Positions 43,042 through 64,000 of a DNA stretch of 64,000 bases are shown here, piece by piece. The position numbers were made by a program, and so were the translations under genes. The DNA comes from a virus, in the IMG/VR virus record IMGVR_UViG_3300031521_000011, positions 64,001 through 128,000 of that record; one strand, written 5' to 3'. Positions within the stretch are counted from its first letter, which is position 1. Each line of letters opens with the position of its first letter. Below the pieces are notes generated by a model, which saw only the letters and a program-made list of their open reading frames with translations, did not search any database and was not told the DNA's origin.

Positions 43042-44964
43042 ATGATTTCCTATACAACGGATGTTGATGGAGCTAAATTAGAAGCCAGAATCGTAAACGG
43101 AGAACTTATAATCGTGCAAATGCTCGGATCGGTTGAAACTCCATTCACGAACCCAAATGCATATGCAATGATAACACCTATACCAGGATGTTCGACCTTG
43201 ACATGGGGTGATTTTGCAAGCCCGGCATGTATCAAGGGATGTCTCAAGACACCCGTTTCCACAAACGCCGGCATTCGGGCCAATATAACAATATTGGCTC
43301 AATCGATTGAGGCTCTCGGTAAGAAGTTGGGAGCTACTCCAGTTATTGTTCTTGGGTGGATTACTACTGCTCATTCAAAGCACATATCATCTGATAGCGC
43401 CCAGCTGAATGATCACTTTAATGGTCTGGCTGCGGATGTGAGATTTCTTGATTCAACCGGTAAAGATGTTGATATTAGGATGTTTTATGGTGCAGCCGTA
43501 ACAATAGGTCACTACGACACCTCATCTATAGTGCCAAGTGAACCAGGTACTTTCGTAAGGCCATTCTCGGCAATACTAATTCAGTCATCATTTGTGCATT
43601 TGTCAATAAGCAGCACGGCATCAAGTCAAGCTCCAGTTGCACCTCAATACAAAGGGAGCTTTGCATCCGATTGGGCTGAAGCCATTAACGGTAAATTACT
43701 CTCCGTACCATCTGGAGTGGCAATCCCGACTTCTACAAATGCTAATGTCTCGAAGTTGGATACCCTTGGTAGATTTGGAACATTGGGTGATATTTCAAAA
43801 TATCTCAAGGTAGATGCTGCAACGTTGTATTATATGAATTTCGGACATGCTTGCCCCATAGATACTGATCCAGCTACAGTGTCTGCAGTGCCTCTAACAT
43901 CTGTTTATTATCCGAATACACCAGCCAATGCGTTCTTGCTTGGTGCAGAGACTCACCAGGCTCTTGCAGCAAACAGTGATACTATAAAGGGTGGAATTAT
44001 CGCAGAGTATGCTGCTTCAAAAAGCGCCATGATGGTCATAAGTAGTGATATGGATAAATATGTTGCAGATGGCATGACATTGGCACAAGCAGCAAATGCA
44101 GAGGCTATAGCTGAAGTTTCTTCATTGAAAGGAACAGATGATAGCTATAAATCCGCAAGGACATATGTTCGCACACATGCACTGAAGTCTGTACCATATG
44201 AGCGTGCCTGTTTGGTTGTGACTACCCAAACAAAAACTACATACATAGATTTTGTGCTTAATCCAAACTCGCTCAATATTGGATACTCCAATGTCGTTAC
44301 CCCACAAAAGACTAGCGCTGGTTGGTTTCTGTCAAGACAAGGAGGAAATCTTATCAGCATCTCATTTACCGGAAATCTATTTGATGCAGTGAATATTGAA
44401 GAAAAGCATCTATTCTTAGAGGCGTACAAGCAAAATTGTGTTGACCAGAAAACAATGAGCGACGAGTATGTAAACGAATCTATTGTATATCTGTATATCG
44501 AAGGCGTGAAGTATACAGGATATGTTAGTTCCATAAATCTAGTGAAATCTACACAGCAGCAGGTTACCTATTCCTATTCTCTTTCCTTTATCGGTGTAGA
44601 TGACACATATATGCAGTATAAAATGAAAAATGGAGATTCTACTTCTAGTGATTCTTACTTTACTGGGGATAAGAATACAGATGATGATACTGATCCGTCG
44701 CCATCTGGACATTCCACGGGGGATGTAATTATCAATCCGCCTCCGCCGTCCCATAATCCAGATCCTGTAGTTAAATTCAAAACAGCCAAGGTTACAGCTT
44801 CTTCGCTAAATGTGAGATCTGGTCCCGGGACGAATTATAAAGTCGTAAGTAGCAAGCGCAAAAATGACTCAATAACCATATACGGCACAAAAAAGCCGTG
44901 GCTTAAGATTGACAAAACAAAGAATTTGTGGCTACATGGTTCCTATACGACTTATAAATTCTGA
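43042..44964 (+). CDS. tail tube initiator-like protein with M15-like peptidase, LysM-like and SH3b domains
   Basis: H..G.AAD...FVH (M15 Zn site), TLGDISKYLKV...LYYMN (LysM-like), FVLNPNSL (tube initiator-like), LNVRSGPGTNY...W (SH3b). Confidence 0.7.
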   Translation: MISYTTDVDGAKLEARIVNGELIIVQMLGSVETPFTNPNAYAMITPIPGCSTLTWGDFASPACIKGCLKTPVSTNAGIRANITILAQSIEALGKKLGATPVIVLGWITTAHSKHISSDSAQLNDHFNGLAADVRFLDSTGKDVDIRMFYGAAVTIGHYDTSSIVPSEPGTFVRPFSAILIQSSFVHLSISSTASSQAPVAPQYKGSFASDWAEAINGKLLSVPSGVAIPTSTNANVSKLDTLGRFGTLGDISKYLKVDAATLYYMNFGHACPIDTDPATVSAVPLTSVYYPNTPANAFLLGAETHQALAANSDTIKGGIIAEYAASKSAMMVISSDMDKYVADGMTLAQAANAEAIAEVSSLKGTDDSYKSARTYVRTHALKSVPYERACLVVTTQTKTTYIDFVLNPNSLNIGYSNVVTPQKTSAGWFLSRQGGNLISISFTGNLFDAVNIEEKHLFLEAYKQNCVDQKTMSDEYVNESIVYLYIEGVKYTGYVSSINLVKSTQQQVTYSYSLSFIGVDDTYMQYKMKNGDSTSSDSYFTGDKNTDDDTDPSPSGHSTGDVIINPPPPSHNPDPVVKFKTAKVTASSLNVRSGPGTNYKVVSSKRKNDSITIYGTKKPWLKIDKTKNLWLHGSYTTYKF

Positions 44965-44972
44965 TAGGAGAT

Positions 44973-47900
44973 TTGTCAATGAGAACCATCGAGGCAATTC
45001 CTGGATACTTAATCTTCTTTGACGATATTAGGGTGGACCAGTTCGTTAAAAGCTTCAGTGTGAATTTATCTACTGATGGCGCAATGGGACAGGCCAGTTT
45101 TGATATGCTCTATTTGCCAGATCTAGCGTCGCAAGATTTTCGCGGTGTGGATGATGAGCTTTATAAAGTAATTGACACCATAGACAATATGACAAATGCG
45201 AAGGTGTTTATTAAAAATATCTTTTCAAACAAATATATGCAAGTATTTGACGGCAATATAAAGGGAAAGTCAGTAACTCGGTCACCGAATGGAAACACAT
45301 TGGTGTATAGCGCCATTGACTACATGGGGTGGCTTAATCGTACAATCGTTCCACTCCAAATACCAGTGGCGCAGAGAAAATTCAACCTGGATACTCTGCG
45401 TTGGAACGCAAATGGTGTGGACATCAATAAGGTGTGGTTGATGTCTAATGATGCAACTCTTGGATTTAAGGGCAAGAATGTTAAGCAGATGATGGCGATT
45501 ATCTCCAATCAGGCTCTTGCCAGCAACAAACTTTATTCACAAGACGGAAGTGTTGCGGTATGGGATAATGCCATTGGCCGTATTGATATAATGGGTGATA
45601 TTGATGCGCGTTGGCGCAATCCTGGCATTTTGGATTTCGTTATTAATCCACAACTTCAGAGCGTTCAGTCTTTCTATGTTTTTGCCAACGACCTGGTAAG
45701 CAAATTAATGTTTGAATTCTATCAGGATCGAGATGGAAAAATTCGCATCAAGCCTCCATTCTGGAATCAGCCAGTAATGAAAAGCCATATCATAGATGCC
45801 TCCATGATATTTGAAATATCTGAAAGATGTGATTGGACTCAGGGCAAAACCAGGGTCATTACCACCGGTGGAATTGAGGACATATATACTACAACAGGAA
45901 ATGTTGCCGCTCAAACAATCGTTACTCCAATCAATGTGTATGTTGGCGGAGGTTTTGGTGGTAAGGCATACACTATGTCTAATGTATTTCAGGAAAATCT
46001 GTTTTCAACAGATGGTGGTACTAAGGTTATAGATGGCGGTGGAGATTCTGTTTTCAAGAGTGTCAAGGAAAGCTTTTCATCATTAACCCTTGGTGCGCGA
46101 GCTCATGTTCAAAGGCTTGCGCTCTATAGTCGCGGAAAAATATTGAGCAGCGCTAAAATCGTTGATAATGGATATGCTGCCATCAAGAATAGCCCAACCG
46201 CAGGTCAGACAAAAAAATGGTCTGACATAAATAGTATATGGTTCTCAGATGGCGGAGTCGATACTGGAGCCAATGGACAATATTCAAAGAATATTGTCGA
46301 TACATTTAACTCCATGAAGTTAATTTCGTATATAGCTGGACAAACCGGGCCTTATGACTCAGTCGATACAACTCCATCCGGATATGATGTTGAAATTATT
46401 CCAGCCTCCGGAGACTTTACTAGCAATGGTGCGACTACACAGCAGATCGTTCAATATATTAGAAATAAGACTAATGGATTTGAGTCCATTAGTCTACCTC
46501 GTGTTGATGGAAAGAATCCGTGGTCCACCAAAGAGGCATTTGTGACGGATTTTGTTTCACAGTATATAATTGAGGCTATAGCGGAAAAAATGACACCGGG
46601 ACTCGTTATCGCCCAGGCTCTCGTATCCACCATGACCTTAACGAGTATCGATGTAACGGGTGGTCTTAAGATTATGGGAGACAGCAAGGTTGGTAGTCAA
46701 CCAGAGAGAAAGCTTATCGATGGCGATATGAACTTTGCTTTCCTATATTATATAGTAGAAAATAAAACCGGGGATACTGGCGATACTGGCGATACTGGCA
46801 ATACTGGCGATACCGGAAATACAACCCCAAACAACACCAATAAAGATGTATTCACAAGCGACGGTAGCCCGAGTTCCGCCGGAGCAATGCTTGGAGCTAT
46901 AATAAAATCAAGAGTTGGTGGCGGATATGTATATGCGACAGGATATAATGCAGTCAAGGGTAGAGCTGGAACAATTTGTACTGAATCAGTTATCCAGACG
47001 GCTGCACATAATCATCCCGTGGCATTTGCTGAAGTAATAAAGAAAGGAAAATGGAAAGGCAAGACGATCTTAGAGGTTGCTAGACAGTGGCTTGGATATG
47101 AAACATGGGATTGTTCTGGCTTGGTTACATGGGCTTGCGTACAGATTGGTATACCCAGATCACTCGTTGGGAATTGCAATGCCATATTCCACGTAAATGG
47201 AAAGCATCCTGGTGTTTTAAAAATAATGAAGAATGCCGGTATGGGTGGGCGTATTTCAAATACTGAGCCCGTACAGGTGGGAGACTTACTGTTCTGTCTT
47301 AGTTCTAGTAGTGAATCTCACCACATTGGTATGGTTTCAGATATACAAGGATCCGTTAAATATGTTACTGAGGCATCCAGTACTACGTCCGGAGTTGTTC
47401 ATGGTCCAATGAAGTCTACAAAATGGAGGGTATGGGCCAGATGGGACTTTACCCATACTGCAATGCGTGGCGATGCTGGAAGAGCGTATGCCCCCCCAAC
47501 CAGGCTTGAAATTCCCGCGCTTACAAAGGGCGGTAAAACTGGTACTGGCAATTCGACAGATATAGGTGATACTGGAGATACTGGAGATACAACTCCTGAT
47601 GAAGAAGATGTTAGCAATGTTGCCAATCTCAGTCAATTATTGAAGTGTTCACAAGAAGAACTTCGATATGGCGCTAACGTACTTGAGGTATCTCAGCCGC
47701 TTATTCGGTTCAGTACAATGAATGCTACAGCAGTCAGTGTACAGGGAGCAGATAGTAAATCCATGAGTGCGCTTGCTGCGTATAGTAGGTTTATGTATTT
47801 TTTATCAAATTCAATGACGAGAACTGCATCAGTTAGTATGATTGGTGCTCCATGGTTGCGCCCTGGGTTTAATGCCTGGGTGGATCCAACTCATACTGAT

Positions 47901-49205
47901 AAAATCTATTACATAAATACTGTTTCTCATAGTGGAAACCCACACAGCGGAGTGACAACATCACTCGGCTTAGTAATGGGCAGAACGAGAAATGATTTCG
48001 TTAGCGATAATGCCGATGTGTTTGGGCGTTTGTCTAAGGATAAAACCGACATTGTATTTGTTAATGAAATTTCTAAAACCGCATCAGAATTCGGCCCTGT
48101 TATAGACTCGGCTGCTGCATTCGAGTCTGTAAGGAAAAATCTGGTATCATTTCACAAGGGTGATTCTGCTGTTATAAAGGCGGATAGATGCTCAATCGCA
48201 TCTTTATACATCAATGATAATAATGACTCGACTATCGATAACCAGAACACCAATGGTTACGTTGCCGATATAAGAGGAGTATCTGGAACATTGGAATCTG
48301 GAGATTATTACATTCCGGACTTTACGTCATTAAAGAGGGGCAACTCGGGTGCGTCCGTGAAGTGGGTGCAAGAGGTTCTATCGAAAACAGGATATGATAT
48401 TGGAACCATTGATGGGGTGTTCGATGAGCAGTTAGAGAAGGCAGTAAAAAGTTTCCAGAAAACATTCTCCGTAGGCACATATACTGGAATCGTTGATACA
48501 AAAACAAAAAATGCCCTACTTGGACAGTTGGCTACATACGCTATGCTCGCATTTCCTGAACTTGGAAATGTTTATAATGTTTTCTCTAAAGACTTAAAAC
48601 TTGGCGATTATCTTATTGCCGTAACAACTCTGTGCAGAATAATCAATAGGTATTTCTATAATCTATGGGGCGGCGCCAGTGAAGAAGACTCTAGTTGGCC
48701 AGATCCAGATCCCAAATACCCAAGTGCGAGACTGCCATTACCAATGCCTGATGTACCAAATCCTAATGGCCCACCAAATTCAAAGACAGGCGAAGTACCA
48801 AGTGTTTTTGATGCTATAGTAGGAGATACCTTGAGTCATTATATTCAAGATTTCTTCCTAAATATTCCAATAACAGGGAAACTTGATTATAAAACAAGGG
48901 CCGCTATGTTGGTGGCTATATGTTATATTGGAAATCTCGATATAAGCCGCAGGATATCAAATGAAACCGTAGATCCCAATGTGGCACCTGAGAAGATATC
49001 GGTTCCTACCGGCGCAAAGGTTACGGCAGCATACCTCGGCGGCATGCATTCCCTGGATGATATCCAGAAGACATTGACGGCAATCTATAAGCAATCAGGC
49101 ATGGGTAAGGTTATTAAGGATCGAGGTACCATTATTCGCGCCGGTTTAAGCCTCTGCAAGAAGAATGCATACAAGTATTACATCATGTCATTGAAGGGAG
49201 GATAA
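44973..49205 (+). CDS. baseplate hub protein with NlpC/P60 and peptidoglycan-binding domains
   Basis: EFYQDRDGKIRIKPP and GAPWLRPG...YYI..V.H hub motifs; WDCSGLV...GDLLF...HIG..EAS (NlpC/P60); LKRG.SG..VK..Q..L...DG.FD...AVK.FQ (PG-binding). Confidence 0.8.
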   Translation: MSMRTIEAIPGYLIFFDDIRVDQFVKSFSVNLSTDGAMGQASFDMLYLPDLASQDFRGVDDELYKVIDTIDNMTNAKVFIKNIFSNKYMQVFDGNIKGKSVTRSPNGNTLVYSAIDYMGWLNRTIVPLQIPVAQRKFNLDTLRWNANGVDINKVWLMSNDATLGFKGKNVKQMMAIISNQALASNKLYSQDGSVAVWDNAIGRIDIMGDIDARWRNPGILDFVINPQLQSVQSFYVFANDLVSKLMFEFYQDRDGKIRIKPPFWNQPVMKSHIIDASMIFEISERCDWTQGKTRVITTGGIEDIYTTTGNVAAQTIVTPINVYVGGGFGGKAYTMSNVFQENLFSTDGGTKVIDGGGDSVFKSVKESFSSLTLGARAHVQRLALYSRGKILSSAKIVDNGYAAIKNSPTAGQTKKWSDINSIWFSDGGVDTGANGQYSKNIVDTFNSMKLISYIAGQTGPYDSVDTTPSGYDVEIIPASGDFTSNGATTQQIVQYIRNKTNGFESISLPRVDGKNPWSTKEAFVTDFVSQYIIEAIAEKMTPGLVIAQALVSTMTLTSIDVTGGLKIMGDSKVGSQPERKLIDGDMNFAFLYYIVENKTGDTGDTGDTGNTGDTGNTTPNNTNKDVFTSDGSPSSAGAMLGAIIKSRVGGGYVYATGYNAVKGRAGTICTESVIQTAAHNHPVAFAEVIKKGKWKGKTILEVARQWLGYETWDCSGLVTWACVQIGIPRSLVGNCNAIFHVNGKHPGVLKIMKNAGMGGRISNTEPVQVGDLLFCLSSSSESHHIGMVSDIQGSVKYVTEASSTTSGVVHGPMKSTKWRVWARWDFTHTAMRGDAGRAYAPPTRLEIPALTKGGKTGTGNSTDIGDTGDTGDTTPDEEDVSNVANLSQLLKCSQEELRYGANVLEVSQPLIRFSTMNATAVSVQGADSKSMSALAAYSRFMYFLSNSMTRTASVSMIGAPWLRPGFNAWVDPTHTDKIYYINTVSHSGNPHSGVTTSLGLVMGRTRNDFVSDNADVFGRLSKDKTDIVFVNEISKTASEFGPVIDSAAAFESVRKNLVSFHKGDSAVIKADRCSIASLYINDNNDSTIDNQNTNGYVADIRGVSGTLESGDYYIPDFTSLKRGNSGASVKWVQEVLSKTGYDIGTIDGVFDEQLEKAVKSFQKTFSVGTYTGIVDTKTKNALLGQLATYAMLAFPELGNVYNVFSKDLKLGDYLIAVTTLCRIINRYFYNLWGGASEEDSSWPDPDPKYPSARLPLPMPDVPNPNGPPNSKTGEVPSVFDAIVGDTLSHYIQDFFLNIPITGKLDYKTRAAMLVAICYIGNLDISRRISNETVDPNVAPEKISVPTGAKVTAAYLGGMHSLDDIQKTLTAIYKQSGMGKVIKDRGTIIRAGLSLCKKNAYKYYIMSLKGG

Positions 49206-57775: not shown

Positions 57776-60724
<2,949 letters not shown>

Positions 60725-60761
60725 TATATCGAATATCAAAGAATTAAATGGGGAGGAAATA

Positions 60762-61343
60762 ATGAAATCTGAATGGGAACAAGCAACAGATTGGGAAAGG
60801 GAATGGCACGGAAACTGTGTCAACTCATACCAAGAGGAGACTAAACAGATTGAATACGCAAAACGAATGGGTCTGGTTATCGAAGGTAGAGATGGAAGAT
60901 ACCCTATTATCGATTTCCATGACAAATCTGTTATCGACGTTGGAGGTGGACCATATTCATTGCTACTCAAGGGAATCAATCTGCATGGAACCGTGCTTGA
61001 TCCTTGTAAATACCCTCAATGGGTATACCAAAGATATGCGGCGGCCGGAATCCATATCATCGAGATGAAGGCTGAGGACTACTGCAATCCACGCTATGAC
61101 ATTGGGCTTCTGTATAACTGTCTGCAGCATACAGAAAATCCAAAGAAGATCATTGAAAATATGAAAAAGATGTGCGACTTGATTTATATCCATGAATGGC
61201 TAGATACACCAATATCGGATGGCCACATACAGACAATCCGGGAAGCGGATCTTAATGAGTGGTTAGAAGGAATTGGAATGATTGGATATGAACGCTGGAG
61301 CGACACTGTTGTAACGCCGTACTACTACGGATTGTTTATATAG
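60762..61343 (+). CDS. class I SAM-dependent methyltransferase
   Basis: VIDVGGG motif I, LDP, YNCLQH...P; ATG 60762 with GGGGAGG RBS. Confidence 0.8.
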   Translation: MKSEWEQATDWEREWHGNCVNSYQEETKQIEYAKRMGLVIEGRDGRYPIIDFHDKSVIDVGGGPYSLLLKGINLHGTVLDPCKYPQWVYQRYAAAGIHIIEMKAEDYCNPRYDIGLLYNCLQHTENPKKIIENMKKMCDLIYIHEWLDTPISDGHIQTIREADLNEWLEGIGMIGYERWSDTVVTPYYYGLFI

Positions 61344-61361
61344 AAAGAAGGAGTAAGCAGA

Positions 61362-62477
61362 ATGGAGAAACCAACAATTCATGTTATAGGGATGCCGCAT
61401 ATTCAAACCTCAAAAGCATATTGCAGAGATGCTTATGGAATGAAGATACTTCATTTTTGCCAAATGATGCATAAAGAAGGATACAAAATCATGCTTTATG
61501 CCAGTGAGGATAATGAGACGCCTGCCGAATTATTCACATGCATCACTAAAGCTCAGCAAGCCAAGCTGGGTTTTGAAGGCCCTGAAGACTATCTGAACAT
61601 ACAGTTCGATGTCACCAAGCCTATCTGGCAGATATTTCAGTCCAGAGTGACTTATTTTCTGAATAAAAATGTAAGTCCCGGAGACATCATTGGTACATTC
61701 TCTGGGCTTTGCGACAAATCCATTGCTGACGCCTTTCCGCAATGCTATTTTGTAGAACTCGGGATCGGGTATTCTGGCGTATTTTCTGGCTTCCGCATCT
61801 TTGAATCTTATGCCTGGATGCATACGATTTACGGAGCATCCACCGGAAACGCATCTGCAACAGACGGCAAATTCTACGATACTGTGATCCCGAATTATTT
61901 TAATCCCGATGATTTTCCATTTAAAAGCGAAAAGGAAGATTATTTCCTATTCGTCGGGAGAATGATCTATCGGAAAGGAATTGTCATCATCAACGACATG
62001 GCTAAGCGTATGCCAAATACTAAATTTATCTTTGCAGGACAAGGCGCCGTTCAGTATAAAAACAAAATAGGTTGTAGCGATGGAACTGTTCTTGAGGGGG
62101 ATAACCTGGAGTATATCGGAACTATCAATATAGAGCAGCGTGGTAAGCTGATGAGCGGAGCAAAAGCTCTCATTGTGCCTACTATTTACATCGGACCTTT
62201 TGAGGGCGTTCATGCAGAGGCTATGTTTTGCGGAACGCCCGTAATAACCACGAACTTTGGTTGCTTTACAGAGACGAATATCGATGGTGTTACTGGATAC
62301 CGATGCTCTACGATCAAACAATTCGTTGAAGCTGCAAGCAAGGTATCATCCCTCGATCCTATGAAGATACGGGCTCATGCCCTGTCAAAATTTTCTATGG
62401 ATAGTGTTGCTCCTCAATATACGAAATATTTTGAGCAAATTCAGGGTTTAGCTAACGGCGGATTCTATGAAATGTAG
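61362..62477 (+). CDS. GT-B (GT4-like) glycosyltransferase
   Basis: VIPN, LFVGR...KG, F...EAMFCGTPVIT, DGVTG. Confidence 0.85.
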   Translation: MEKPTIHVIGMPHIQTSKAYCRDAYGMKILHFCQMMHKEGYKIMLYASEDNETPAELFTCITKAQQAKLGFEGPEDYLNIQFDVTKPIWQIFQSRVTYFLNKNVSPGDIIGTFSGLCDKSIADAFPQCYFVELGIGYSGVFSGFRIFESYAWMHTIYGASTGNASATDGKFYDTVIPNYFNPDDFPFKSEKEDYFLFVGRMIYRKGIVIINDMAKRMPNTKFIFAGQGAVQYKNKIGCSDGTVLEGDNLEYIGTINIEQRGKLMSGAKALIVPTIYIGPFEGVHAEAMFCGTPVITTNFGCFTETNIDGVTGYRCSTIKQFVEAASKVSSLDPMKIRAHALSKFSMDSVAPQYTKYFEQIQGLANGGFYEM

Positions 62478-62533
62478 TTGAAAACTGGCGCACTGAAAGA
62501 TTATTAGGTATACTTAGATTCGGGGTGATAATT

Positions 62534-64000
62534 ATGGCTTTCGTAACGGCTGGCGTTAAAATCTACGCCACCAACTATAATAGAGTAAAGGGCAGAATAG
62601 CAGCTGAGTTAGCTCGGCGTGGATTGACATCCACATTGAGAAGCAATGTTACCGCTGGAATAAAGATGCTGGCAACTGATATGTCTAGCCTTCAAACCAA
62701 TATTAATAAGATTGCCACGCACTATTCTTCGCTTATGGCGGCTGGTACTAAAATCAGAGCTTCTGACTATAATAACCTGGATGACCAAGTGCAGGCGCAT
62801 GTCAACTTTGATATTTATTCGCTGGTCGCCACGGATTGCGCCTCAAGCTGTACCGGTGGATGCTATACCGCCTGCTCAGCAAGCTGTAAAAATACGTGTA
62901 CCGGTAACTGCTCAACGTCCTGTAGCGGAGCGTGTGGTGTTGTCTGCACCGCTTCATGTGGTGGCTGTGGCGCAGGCTGTTGGAGTACCTGCGCGGCGGG
63001 ATGCGCTGGCTGTAGCGGCACCTGCAATGGATGCACTGGACAATGCTCATCAACATGCAAAACGGCATGCGCCGGCTGTGGAACGAGTTGCGTGACGGCA
63101 TGCAGCACCGGATGCAATGGATGCACCGGGCACTGTAATGGATGCACTGGTCAATGTTCCGCCAAATGCGCTACTGTATGCGCAAGCTGCTCTGGACAGT
63201 GTAGCAGCGCATGCGCCGGTGGATGTCATGGATGCTCAGGACAGTGCGATACAGACTGCACAGGGGCCTGTACCGGGCGTTGTCTTACCGTATGCGGTGT
63301 ATGTGCCTCTAGCTGCTCAAGCGCTTGTAAGGGCTGCAGTGGGTGTTCTACGTCATGCGGATCTAACTGCTCGACGAACTGTGGTACAGATTGTGCTGGT
63401 GGATGCAATACCAACTGCACTGGCTCATGTACTTCGACCTGTTCTATAGCGTGCTATAGTGTTTGCGGGGGCTGCTCTAACGGATGCGCCAGCTGTACTG
63501 GAGGATGTCAGGGTGCCTGTAAGGGATGCGATACGACGTGTAGCACAGGATGCAGTGGGGCCTGTAAGGGGTCATGCAACAACGGCTGCACTGGTTGTGA
63601 TACAGTATGTACAGGCGGCTGTAAGGGATGCAGTGCATGTGGAAATGGAAGCTGCTCTCAATCATGCGGAATCGCGTGTTCGTCCTGCAAGGGTGCATGC
63701 ACTGGTTGCTCAACCGGATGTTCTACAAGTTGTAATGCCGCATGCACTACTGGTTGCGGAAGTACCTGTGATAATAACTGCGCCAGTGATTGTGAAGGTG
63801 GATGCACCGGTACCTGTAATGGCTGTTCTACCACATGCACCGGCGGATGTTCAACCGCCTGTACGGCTTGTGGTGGAAATTGCGATAATAACTGCGCCAG
63901 TAATTGCGAGGGTGGATGCACCGGTGGATGCACGGCATGCAATACTACATGCAGCAGTGGGTGTAAGGCAACCTGTAAAGATGCATGCGGCGGATGTGCG
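62534..64000 (+). CDS. giant Cys-rich CxxxC/CxxC-repeat protein, partial (runs off the window; not in the ORF track)
   Basis: GGGGTGA RBS and ATG 62534; open for 489 codons; 101-aa Cys-free N-terminus, then about 100 Cys (DCASSCTGGCYTACSASC...CKATCKDACGGCA). Confidence 0.9.
   Translation, partial: MAFVTAGVKIYATNYNRVKGRIAAELARRGLTSTLRSNVTAGIKMLATDMSSLQTNINKIATHYSSLMAAGTKIRASDYNNLDDQVQAHVNFDIYSLVATDCASSCTGGCYTACSASCKNTCTGNCSTSCSGACGVVCTASCGGCGAGCWSTCAAGCAGCSGTCNGCTGQCSSTCKTACAGCGTSCVTACSTGCNGCTGHCNGCTGQCSAKCATVCASCSGQCSSACAGGCHGCSGQCDTDCTGACTGRCLTVCGVCASSCSSACKGCSGCSTSCGSNCSTNCGTDCAGGCNTNCTGSCTSTCSIACYSVCGGCSNGCASCTGGCQGACKGCDTTCSTGCSGACKGSCNNGCTGCDTVCTGGCKGCSACGNGSCSQSCGIACSSCKGACTGCSTGCSTSCNAACTTGCGSTCDNNCASDCEGGCTGTCNGCSTTCTGGCSTACTACGGNCDNNCASNCEGGCTGGCTACNTTCSSGCKATCKDACGGCA

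Follow-up and report, generated by a model that had tools for sequence, protein, structure and literature searches.

We analysed the last gene of a 64,000-nucleotide stretch of viral DNA (the window), positions 64001-128000 of the 168,244-bp IMG/VR record IMGVR_UViG_3300031521_000011, together with the sequence that follows it. The gene encodes a giant CxxxC-repeat protein, hereafter the target protein, and it stands at the end of a tail module. Genes for a tail sheath, a baseplate wedge and a collagen-repeat fibre protein with a Collar domain precede it in the window; beyond the window end it is followed by genes for a radical S-adenosylmethionine (SAM)/SPASM maturase and an accessory protein, which complete the cassette, and then by an Amidase_3 endolysin gene (Table 1). 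A first-pass annotation made from the window alone had suggested that the protein might be a virion appendage cross-linked by radical SAM chemistry. Features beyond the window are given as positions in locus L003, where position p equals position 125999+p of the source record (G000:C1) and window-equivalent position 61999+p.

Table 1. Features of the cassette and of its surroundings (window coordinates unless prefixed).
Feature	Position	Strand	Remarks
CxxxC-repeat target gene, in-window part	62534..64000	+	489 of 524 codons; stop at G000:C1:128106-128108, 108 nt past window end
Shine-Dalgarno sequence GGGGTGA	62522..62528	+	5 nt ahead of ATG 62534
Cys-free domain, residues 1-101	62534..62836	+	three repeats; nearly invariant E25 and R29 of the E-x2-RR motif
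Three repeats of the Cys-free domain	62546-62581, 62651-62686, 62738-62773	+	residues 5-16, 40-51, 69-80
Cysteine array, in-window part	62837..64000	+	full array residues 102-518, 111 Cys; extends 87 nt past window end
Duplicated DNNCAS.CEGGCTG blocks	63770-63811, 63884-63925	+	residues 413-426, 451-464
Radical SAM/SPASM maturase, 780 aa	L003:2231-4573 (beyond window end)	+	TIGR04115 family; 350-aa intein
Maturase intein, 350 aa (C50-N399)	L003:2378-3427 = G000:C1:128377-129426	+	class 1, LAGLIDADG homing endonuclease
Accessory protein, 275 aa	L003:4570-5397 (beyond window end)	+	Cys-rich N-terminus; tandem domains 96-177, 195-272
Hairpin with U7 tail	~L003:2133-2169		in 121-nt gap, target to maturase; consensus match only
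Sigma-70-type promoter TTGTCA-17-TATAAT	L003:2171-2199		in 121-nt gap; consensus match only; best match in 7 kb
Collagen-repeat tail-fibre protein with phage tail collar domain, 982 aa	57776..60724	+	
Methyltransferase-like gene (phrog_3603) and GT4 glycosyltransferase gene (61362-62477)	60636..62477	+	between fibre and target genes
143-aa protein of unknown function	L003:5411-5842	+	after accessory gene
Endolysin, Amidase_3/PG_binding_1	L003:5788-6729	+	Pfam domains

The target gene encodes a protein-sized cysteine array

The architecture described by the first-pass annotation is present in full. It had read at least 489 residues, a Cys-free N-terminus of 101 residues with three repeats, about 100 cysteines at CxxxC or CxxC spacing with small residues between them, and a duplicated DNNCAS.CEGGCTG block. 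The protein translated from ATG 62534 has 524 residues; GTG 62525, taken as the start in the open reading frame (ORF) list, falls within the Shine-Dalgarno sequence of the gene. The first cysteine is residue 102, and the array that begins there spans 417 residues, with 103 cysteines in the window and 111 in the whole protein. Of their 110 spacings, 84 are CxxxC (4), 25 are CxxC (3) and one is CxxxxC (5), and no periodicity above 4 was found. The in-window array runs through 102 consecutive spacings of 3-5, compared with a maximum of nine in 2000 shuffles of the same composition. The residues between the cysteines are chiefly Gly, Ser, Thr, Ala and Asn, proline is absent, Lys and Arg are scarce, and the array contains nine Asp and two Glu (11 for 111 Cys); neither His nor acidic residues form a ligand-like pattern.

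Two alternative frames across this stretch likewise lack stop codons, for 243 and 184 residues, and a synonymous-codon score failed to tell the frames apart on this low-complexity DNA. In its place we used a comparison with an ortholog on a 31.9-kb contig (L007), whose maturase is 81% identical. All 110 aligned cysteines are kept in the ortholog, as against 184 of the 309 other array residues (~60%). Differences at codon positions 1, 2 and 3 number 121, 122 and 323, respectively, 217 identical residues are encoded by different codons, and insertions and deletions comprise whole repeat blocks. The kept cysteines and the third-position bias together settle the reading frame. The comparison shows a genuine target gene under purifying selection, with the cysteines as the selected feature of its product.

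Among known families, the target protein matches phrog_6085, a PHROGs family labelled 'unknown function', at E 6.7e-15. A search against CXXX-repeat target families, proposed as a check by the first-pass annotation, gave nothing above the cutoffs: the NCBIfam model TIGR04117 matches weakly (19.2 bits, E 1e-3), below its cutoff of 50, and TIGR04114 (cutoff 20) gave no match at E <= 0.01. The protein has the compositional hallmark of such targets, yet lies outside the narrow paralog or repeat models TIGR04117 and TIGR04114. Pfam returned no match, and no signal peptide was found on the protein. A search of our copy of INPHARED gave no close homolog among cultured phages, the only close matches being two unannotated stool contigs.

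The Cys-free region corresponds to a conserved domain of ~90-115 residues with a near-invariant E-x2-RR motif (alignment A3, 29 sequences); the three repeats, read by the first-pass annotation as a virion anchor or a leader, fall within it. It is N-terminal to the array where the target gene precedes the maturase gene, and usually C-terminal where the target gene follows. AlphaFold2 places one helix on each repeat (residues 12-28, 47-60 and 76-90), with a moderate predicted local distance difference test score (pLDDT 67). A Foldseek search with this model gave no match at E <= 0.001, and a PDB profile search with alignment A3 gave nothing below E 0.06. An exhaustive HMMER search with residues 1-112 found three weak relatives only, all of them short CxxxC proteins. 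A word-indexed search for long relatives of the domain found none among proteins of 288-917 residues, and a search with profile A3 for longer forms of the domain gave one hit among the matches listed.

A TIGR04115-family maturase with an intein follows the target gene

The earlier remark that no maturase is visible in the window is literally true; the maturase gene begins 230 nt past the window end, 121 nt after the target gene, and a search downstream of position 64000 for a radical SAM/SPASM gene, as the first-pass annotation had advised, finds it immediately, with the gene for a CXXX accessory next to it. The encoded enzyme scores 403.6 bits against TIGR04115 (E 9.8e-121, curated NCBIfam cutoff 350), and profile positions 14-359 align to maturase residues 395-751 despite the intein. 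The second-best NCBIfam model is PapB (NF047865, 173.5 bits), below its cutoff of 340, and it is followed by CcpM and the SCIFF maturase (TIGR03974, 85.8 bits, cutoff 425). In PHROGs the enzyme belongs to phrog_1802.

The radical SAM cluster motif of the maturase is interrupted. It reads C43-x3-C47-x2, then the intein C50-N399, then C400, at a site where intein-free homologs have a continuous C-x3-C-x2-C. The intein features comprise Cys1 (C50), a block B T-E-E-H, a terminal V-H-N, the +1 Cys C400 and a LAGLIDADG-type motif; in Pfam, LAGLIDADG_3 is matched at 28.7 bits (cutoff 22.5) and Intein_splicing at 30.7 bits, under its cutoff of 35.8. In alignment with intein-free homologs the intein is a clean insertion between C-x3-C-S-Y and C-Y, and the +1 Cys C400 is thus the third ligand of the radical SAM cluster. 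Two relatives have inteins at the same site, L008 a mini-intein and L014 a full-length homologue; the maturase of the closest ortholog (L007) has none. This distribution suggests recent homing, with splicing as a likely precondition for cluster binding, and an intein inside the cluster-binding motif could act as a splicing-dependent switch on maturase activity.

The SPASM cysteines of the enzyme are C639-x12-G-x4-C657, C707-x2-C710-x5-C716-x2-C719 and C738, and all seven are invariant or nearly so in 30 homologs (alignments A1, A2). As far as its sequence can tell, the maturase after intein removal has all the features expected of an active enzyme of the SPASM radical SAM type. Among solved structures its nearest relative is CteB (5WGG/5WHY, E 6e-17), in which ~115 residues precede the cluster motif, compared with 42 in the phage enzyme. 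These 42 residues leave no room for a fused recognition domain, and substrate recognition probably proceeds through the separate accessory protein and the Cys-free domain of the target.

A divergent accessory protein completes the cassette

The 275-residue protein encoded after the maturase matches TIGR04116 with 17.1 bits (E 0.0045) over residues 224-272, the second copy of its tandem domain, and misses the cutoff of 50. Profiles iterated from either half of the protein recover a homologous small ORF (~85-110 residues) in 84 of 89 loci. By sequence and position it is the accessory of the system, but a divergent one. The fold predicted for the ~85-residue domain (pLDDT 92.6) consists of a strand, a long helical hairpin and a beta-hairpin; structure searches returned generic helical hairpins only (best Z 7.0, Foldseek E >= 0.45), and in these searches the model showed no recognisable likeness to PqqD or to the recognition element (RRE) of ribosomally synthesised and post-translationally modified peptide (RiPP) systems. 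A complex prediction for the tandem domain (A5) and the Cys-free domain (A3) scored 0.01 against a mark of 0.32, which counts neither for nor against binding.

The N-terminus of the accessory protein (residues ~35-86; L003:4570-4840) is an unusually hydrophobic CxxxC/CxxC stretch with Phe, Ile, Val and Ala between the cysteines, shared only by L007. Possible roles for it are those of a second mini-target, a cluster ligand or a membrane-active segment.

The cassette recurs at the tail modules of phages and prophages

At E <= 1e-20 the databases contain 2353 relatives of the maturase C-extein, many of them titled 'CXXX-repeat target family' and originating from Clostridia and Peptococcaceae. In IMG/VR, an alignment query found at least 515 viral contigs with a maturase relative; a single-protein query matched none. 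We fetched and inspected 80 of these loci, and in nearly all of them a CxxxC protein of 130-605 residues with 14-128 cysteines adjoins the maturase. Target, accessory and maturase are one conserved unit. The first-pass annotation had called the substrate far longer than those known. This holds against the catalogued peptide targets (TIGR04117 has 98 positions), whereas lengths of 130-605 residues are normal among the phage relatives. The present target lies in the upper tail of that range and is exceeded by those of L007 (574 residues, 125 Cys) and of L009, a 200-kb phage contig (605 residues, 128 Cys).

We next considered where the cassette resides. Each of the five cellular genomes that we sampled (Dehalobacter, Tissierella, Vallitalea, Desulfocucumis and a 265-kb metagenome contig) carries it in a contractile-tail prophage, directly after a Baseplate_J, Mu Gp48 or P2 gpI gene and a tail-fibre gene; a gene for a holin and/or a lysin comes after it in four of them. 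In a stool phage contig it is flanked by tail-like genes, and in two ~200-kb phage contigs it adjoins virion structural genes. One relative (L014:755-2296, from IMGVR_UViG_3300047196_000066) has a target with an N-terminal CBM96 carbohydrate-binding module (E 3e-14), followed by the conserved domain and then the array.

Two further arrangements bear on what the array can do. A 6.8-kb stool record labelled 'Bacteriophage sp.' (L006, MT837480.1) encodes a 175-residue target with a twin-arginine translocation (Tat) signal, SRREFFK, followed by tatA and tatC; from its gene content it looks like a cellular, exported CXXX system rather than a phage form. Many IMG/VR gut contigs (L041-L088, e.g. L041:4966-6174) carry two target genes in the same frame, one for 157 residues with the conserved domain and 17 cysteines, the other for an array-only protein of 224 residues with ~55 cysteines, which suggests that handle and bulk array can be separate chains. 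The in-frame TAA between them is followed by a ribosome-binding site and an ATG; these are two adjacent genes, and we rejected stop-codon recoding or selenocysteine as an explanation.

Public gene calls mis-frame the array in at least two records: L010:11340-11987 (Dehalobacter, CP162385) is called as a 114-residue Val/Ala-rich product, and L095:10383-11057 as a minus-strand product of 147 residues. Target proteins are thus systematically under-annotated. The system is nevertheless common, in the viral contigs and prophages above, and the culturable lysogens among its hosts, such as Dehalobacter sp. TBBPA1, Tissierella praeacuta, Vallitalea maricola and Desulfocucumis palustris, make the cassette directly testable.

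Comparison with known maturation systems

The CXXX-repeat peptide modification system (TIGR04115/04116/04117/04114) is a type already catalogued, and it is defined only bioinformatically (NCBIfam/TIGRFAMs). The phage cassette resembles it in a maturase that is a member by the curated cutoff, in a cysteine at every fourth residue of the target, in the adjoining target and maturase genes and in the weakly TIGR04116-like accessory that follows. It differs in the length of its target (524 residues against the 98-position TIGR04117 profile), in a target and an accessory that score under the model cutoffs, and in a conserved Cys-free domain of ~105 residues that the NCBIfam target models do not describe. 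Its accessory is a tandem fusion with a Cys stretch of its own, its maturase has an intein, and its genes lie in a phage tail module. A literature search that reached few subscription journals turned up no publication on the CXXX-repeat system, in phages or otherwise, and no characterised TIGR04115 member.

CteB, the maturase of CteA (SCIFF, thermocellin), shares with the phage enzyme a radical SAM core and a seven-Cys SPASM domain. It reportedly makes a Cys-to-Thr thioether. Its N-terminal ~115 residues include an RRE, unlike the short N-terminus of the phage maturase, and its substrate is a peptide of ~45 residues with six cysteines. CteB is also cited as a structural template in the study of CrpC discussed below (PMC13692751). 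PapB, the freyrasin maturase, is the enzyme behind the second-best NCBIfam model. As described in two reports (PMC9413430, PMC10739248), PapB forms thioethers repeatedly along a repeat peptide at Cys-X3-Asp motifs. The phage substrate is ~10x longer, and its 11 Asp/Glu for 111 Cys mean that a PapB-type Cys-Asp linkage cannot apply to the array.

To our knowledge, nearly all known cases of radical SAM thioether formation involve short secreted peptides. The first biochemical demonstration of a whole-protein thioether substrate came in 2026, in Methanococcus voltae, where the SPASM radical SAM enzyme CrpC puts thioethers (ranthionines) on CrpA, a Cys-repeat protein of 28.8 kDa (PMC13692751). We found no other experimental protein-sized Cys-repeat substrate of a radical SAM enzyme in the literature. 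CrpA has an N-terminal Cys-free region for engagement, and a helper, CrpB, is co-encoded (PMC13692751). The phage system is alike in its protein-sized Cys-repeat substrate, N-terminal Cys-free region and co-encoded helper. CrpC, however, belongs to another radical SAM family (TIGR04463 scores 43.8 bits against the phage maturase, cutoff 525), and CrpA has 17-residue repeats with C-x-x-Q/D and is an archaeal, cellular protein tied to pyrite growth, outside any phage context.

Covalent cross-links that stabilise a phage structural protein are familiar from the HK97 capsid 'chainmail', in which autocatalytic Lys-Asn isopeptides join capsid subunits. The idea is the same here; the putative agent differs, being a dedicated radical enzyme whose substrate would be a separate array of cysteines in the tail region.

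A proposed maturation pathway and its alternatives

From the adjoining TIGR04115-family maturase and accessory genes, the target protein is almost certainly the substrate of this radical SAM/SPASM enzyme, as the first-pass annotation had supposed. We favour, with a probability of roughly 55%, the reading that it is the protein-sized substrate of a three-part CXXX-repeat radical SAM maturation system in the phage tail module and is matured as a tail component. From the chemistry of CteB, PapB and CrpC/CrpA we infer that thioethers are formed on the array. In the pathway that we propose, the intein would splice out and restore C-x3-C-x2-C with the +1 Cys as third ligand, and late in infection the spliced maturase would act in the host's reducing cytoplasm. 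It would abstract a hydrogen from a carbon near each cysteine to form a thioether, and repeat this as it walks along the chain, so that cysteine sulfurs become bonded to carbons of Gly, Ser, Thr, Ala and Asn close by. With so few Asp and Glu in the array, carbons of these five residues are the candidate acceptors at most sites. A ladder of up to ~100 thioether staples would result, and the ~100-residue three-helix Cys-free domain may serve as a handle that presents the array to the enzyme and accessory, docks the rod on the tail, or both. The finished appendage, at the fibre end of the tail, could be stiff, resistant to proteases and insensitive to redox conditions; it would be made in the cytoplasm without signal peptide, protease or exporter and would leave the cell with the particle at lysis. 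Given that no protease, transporter or exporter gene was found in the cassette, that the target has no signal peptide and that the cassette keeps its place behind the fibre gene, the most economical reading is a tail component matured in the cytoplasm.

A virion or tail role of the product is plausible from gene position and the single CBM96 fusion. The appendage suggested by the first-pass annotation gains from these and from the placement after a fibre gene in the five prophages; no homology to a known fibre domain was found.

Several points weigh against this interpretation. The reaction is extrapolated from CteB, PapB and CrpC because no TIGR04115 member is known to be characterised, and the acceptor residues are only candidates. 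Placement in the particle is predicted from gene context, and no known fibre, spike or virion domain was detected in the target by Pfam, PHROGs, PDB sequence or Foldseek searches. The model of the Cys-free domain reaches a pLDDT of 67 only. Chaperone genes and morons, too, are found between fibre and lysis genes in many phages. The Tat-signal relative L006 indicates that such an array can, to judge by its genes, also serve as an exported, non-virion protein.

Some of these points would equally fit a maturase-modified product that is not built into the virion but acts within the infected cell or once lysis has released it, be it bacteriocin-like or matrix-binding, a buffer of redox state or metals, or a counter-defence factor, with the tail site reflecting late, moron-like co-expression. 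Non-structural cargo in this slot is common in phages generally, the target is without detected structural-domain homology, its relative in L006 is a Tat-exported cellular protein, and RiPP-type products of radical SAM enzymes are usually free molecules. The maturase unit also has an apparent promoter of its own behind a terminator-like hairpin, both recognised as consensus matches. We nevertheless consider a free product unlikely. The site directly after the fibre gene is kept in P2/Mu-like prophages, in 200-kb phages and in the present phage; a leader protease, an exporter and an immunity gene are all absent; proteins of 130-605 residues with a conserved folded domain are unlike bacteriocin precursors; and one relative is fused to CBM96.

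More doubtful is the possibility that the array keeps free thiols, as a metal-thiolate, Fe-S or disulfide-rich protein in which the radical SAM enzyme modifies few sites or runs another reaction. CxxC and CxxxC are classical metal and Fe-S ligand spacings, and export of a folded or cofactor-bearing protein would agree with the Tat signal on L006. CrpA itself is suspected of metal binding (PMC13692751). The first-pass annotation had itself named a metal-thiolate or disulfide-rich fibre as its alternative. Against this, the array is paired almost universally with a SPASM maturase whose nearest solved or characterised relatives, CteB and PapB, all form Cys thioethers, and its 111 cysteines are separated by small residues with no ligand pattern of His or acidic residues. 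Disulfides should moreover be impossible in the anaerobic, reducing cytoplasm where the enzyme must act.

The classification as ranthipeptide type, made in the first-pass annotation, found no support in the PapB sense. A classical PapB/freyrasin ranthipeptide would have residues 1-101 as a cleaved leader and each Cys linked to an Asp or Glu four residues off. The second rank of PapB among the NCBIfam matches and the resemblance of the Cys-free N-terminus and Cys-rich remainder to leader and core speak for it; the score far under the PapB cutoff, the scarcity of Asp and Glu, the C-terminal position of the Cys-free domain in many relatives, the lack of space for a fused recognition domain in the maturase and the absent protease gene make it very improbable. 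Finally, the notion that the open frame is no gene but a low-complexity product of repetitive GC-rich DNA, for which one might cite the two further open frames, the uninformative codon score and the frequent mis-framing of arrays by public gene callers, is ruled out by the L007 comparison, with which the good Shine-Dalgarno sequence and ATG, the continuity of the array with a conserved non-repetitive domain, the PHROG and NCBIfam matches in this frame and the same architecture at >70 loci all agree.

Returning to the tail-component reading, we tentatively extend it, at somewhat less than even odds, to a general proposal. Phages of anaerobes may staple a tail-associated protein with up to ~100 thioethers by a dedicated radical SAM enzyme, which would be the first enzyme-made, RiPP-type covalent virion material; the helical domain would dock the protein, and the ladder would form a rigid, redox-proof distal rod or a receptor-contacting tip. 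If so, phages heavily cross-link a protein of >500 residues by RiPP-type chemistry and mount it on the tail. This would be a kind of post-translational modification new to virions and would give RiPP-type enzymes a new role in biology. It would also provide a natural example of highly processive stapling, at ~100 sites per chain, of interest to enzymologists and peptide engineers.

Neighbouring genes

The position of the GT4 glycosyltransferase gene upstream of the target gene is also kept in L007, and the target is rich in Ser and Thr; the fibre or the array may be glycosylated. On the downstream side, the ORF for the 143-residue protein overlaps that of the endolysin, from its listed GTG start, by 55 nt in a different frame (L003:5788-5842), and the true endolysin start probably lies further downstream than this GTG. 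Membrane-protein genes come after the endolysin gene. Further upstream, the region 43042-49205 of the window encodes two large tail-region proteins (640 and 1410 residues) with endolysin- or amidase-like domains near their C-termini, which are probably tail-associated cell-wall hydrolases.

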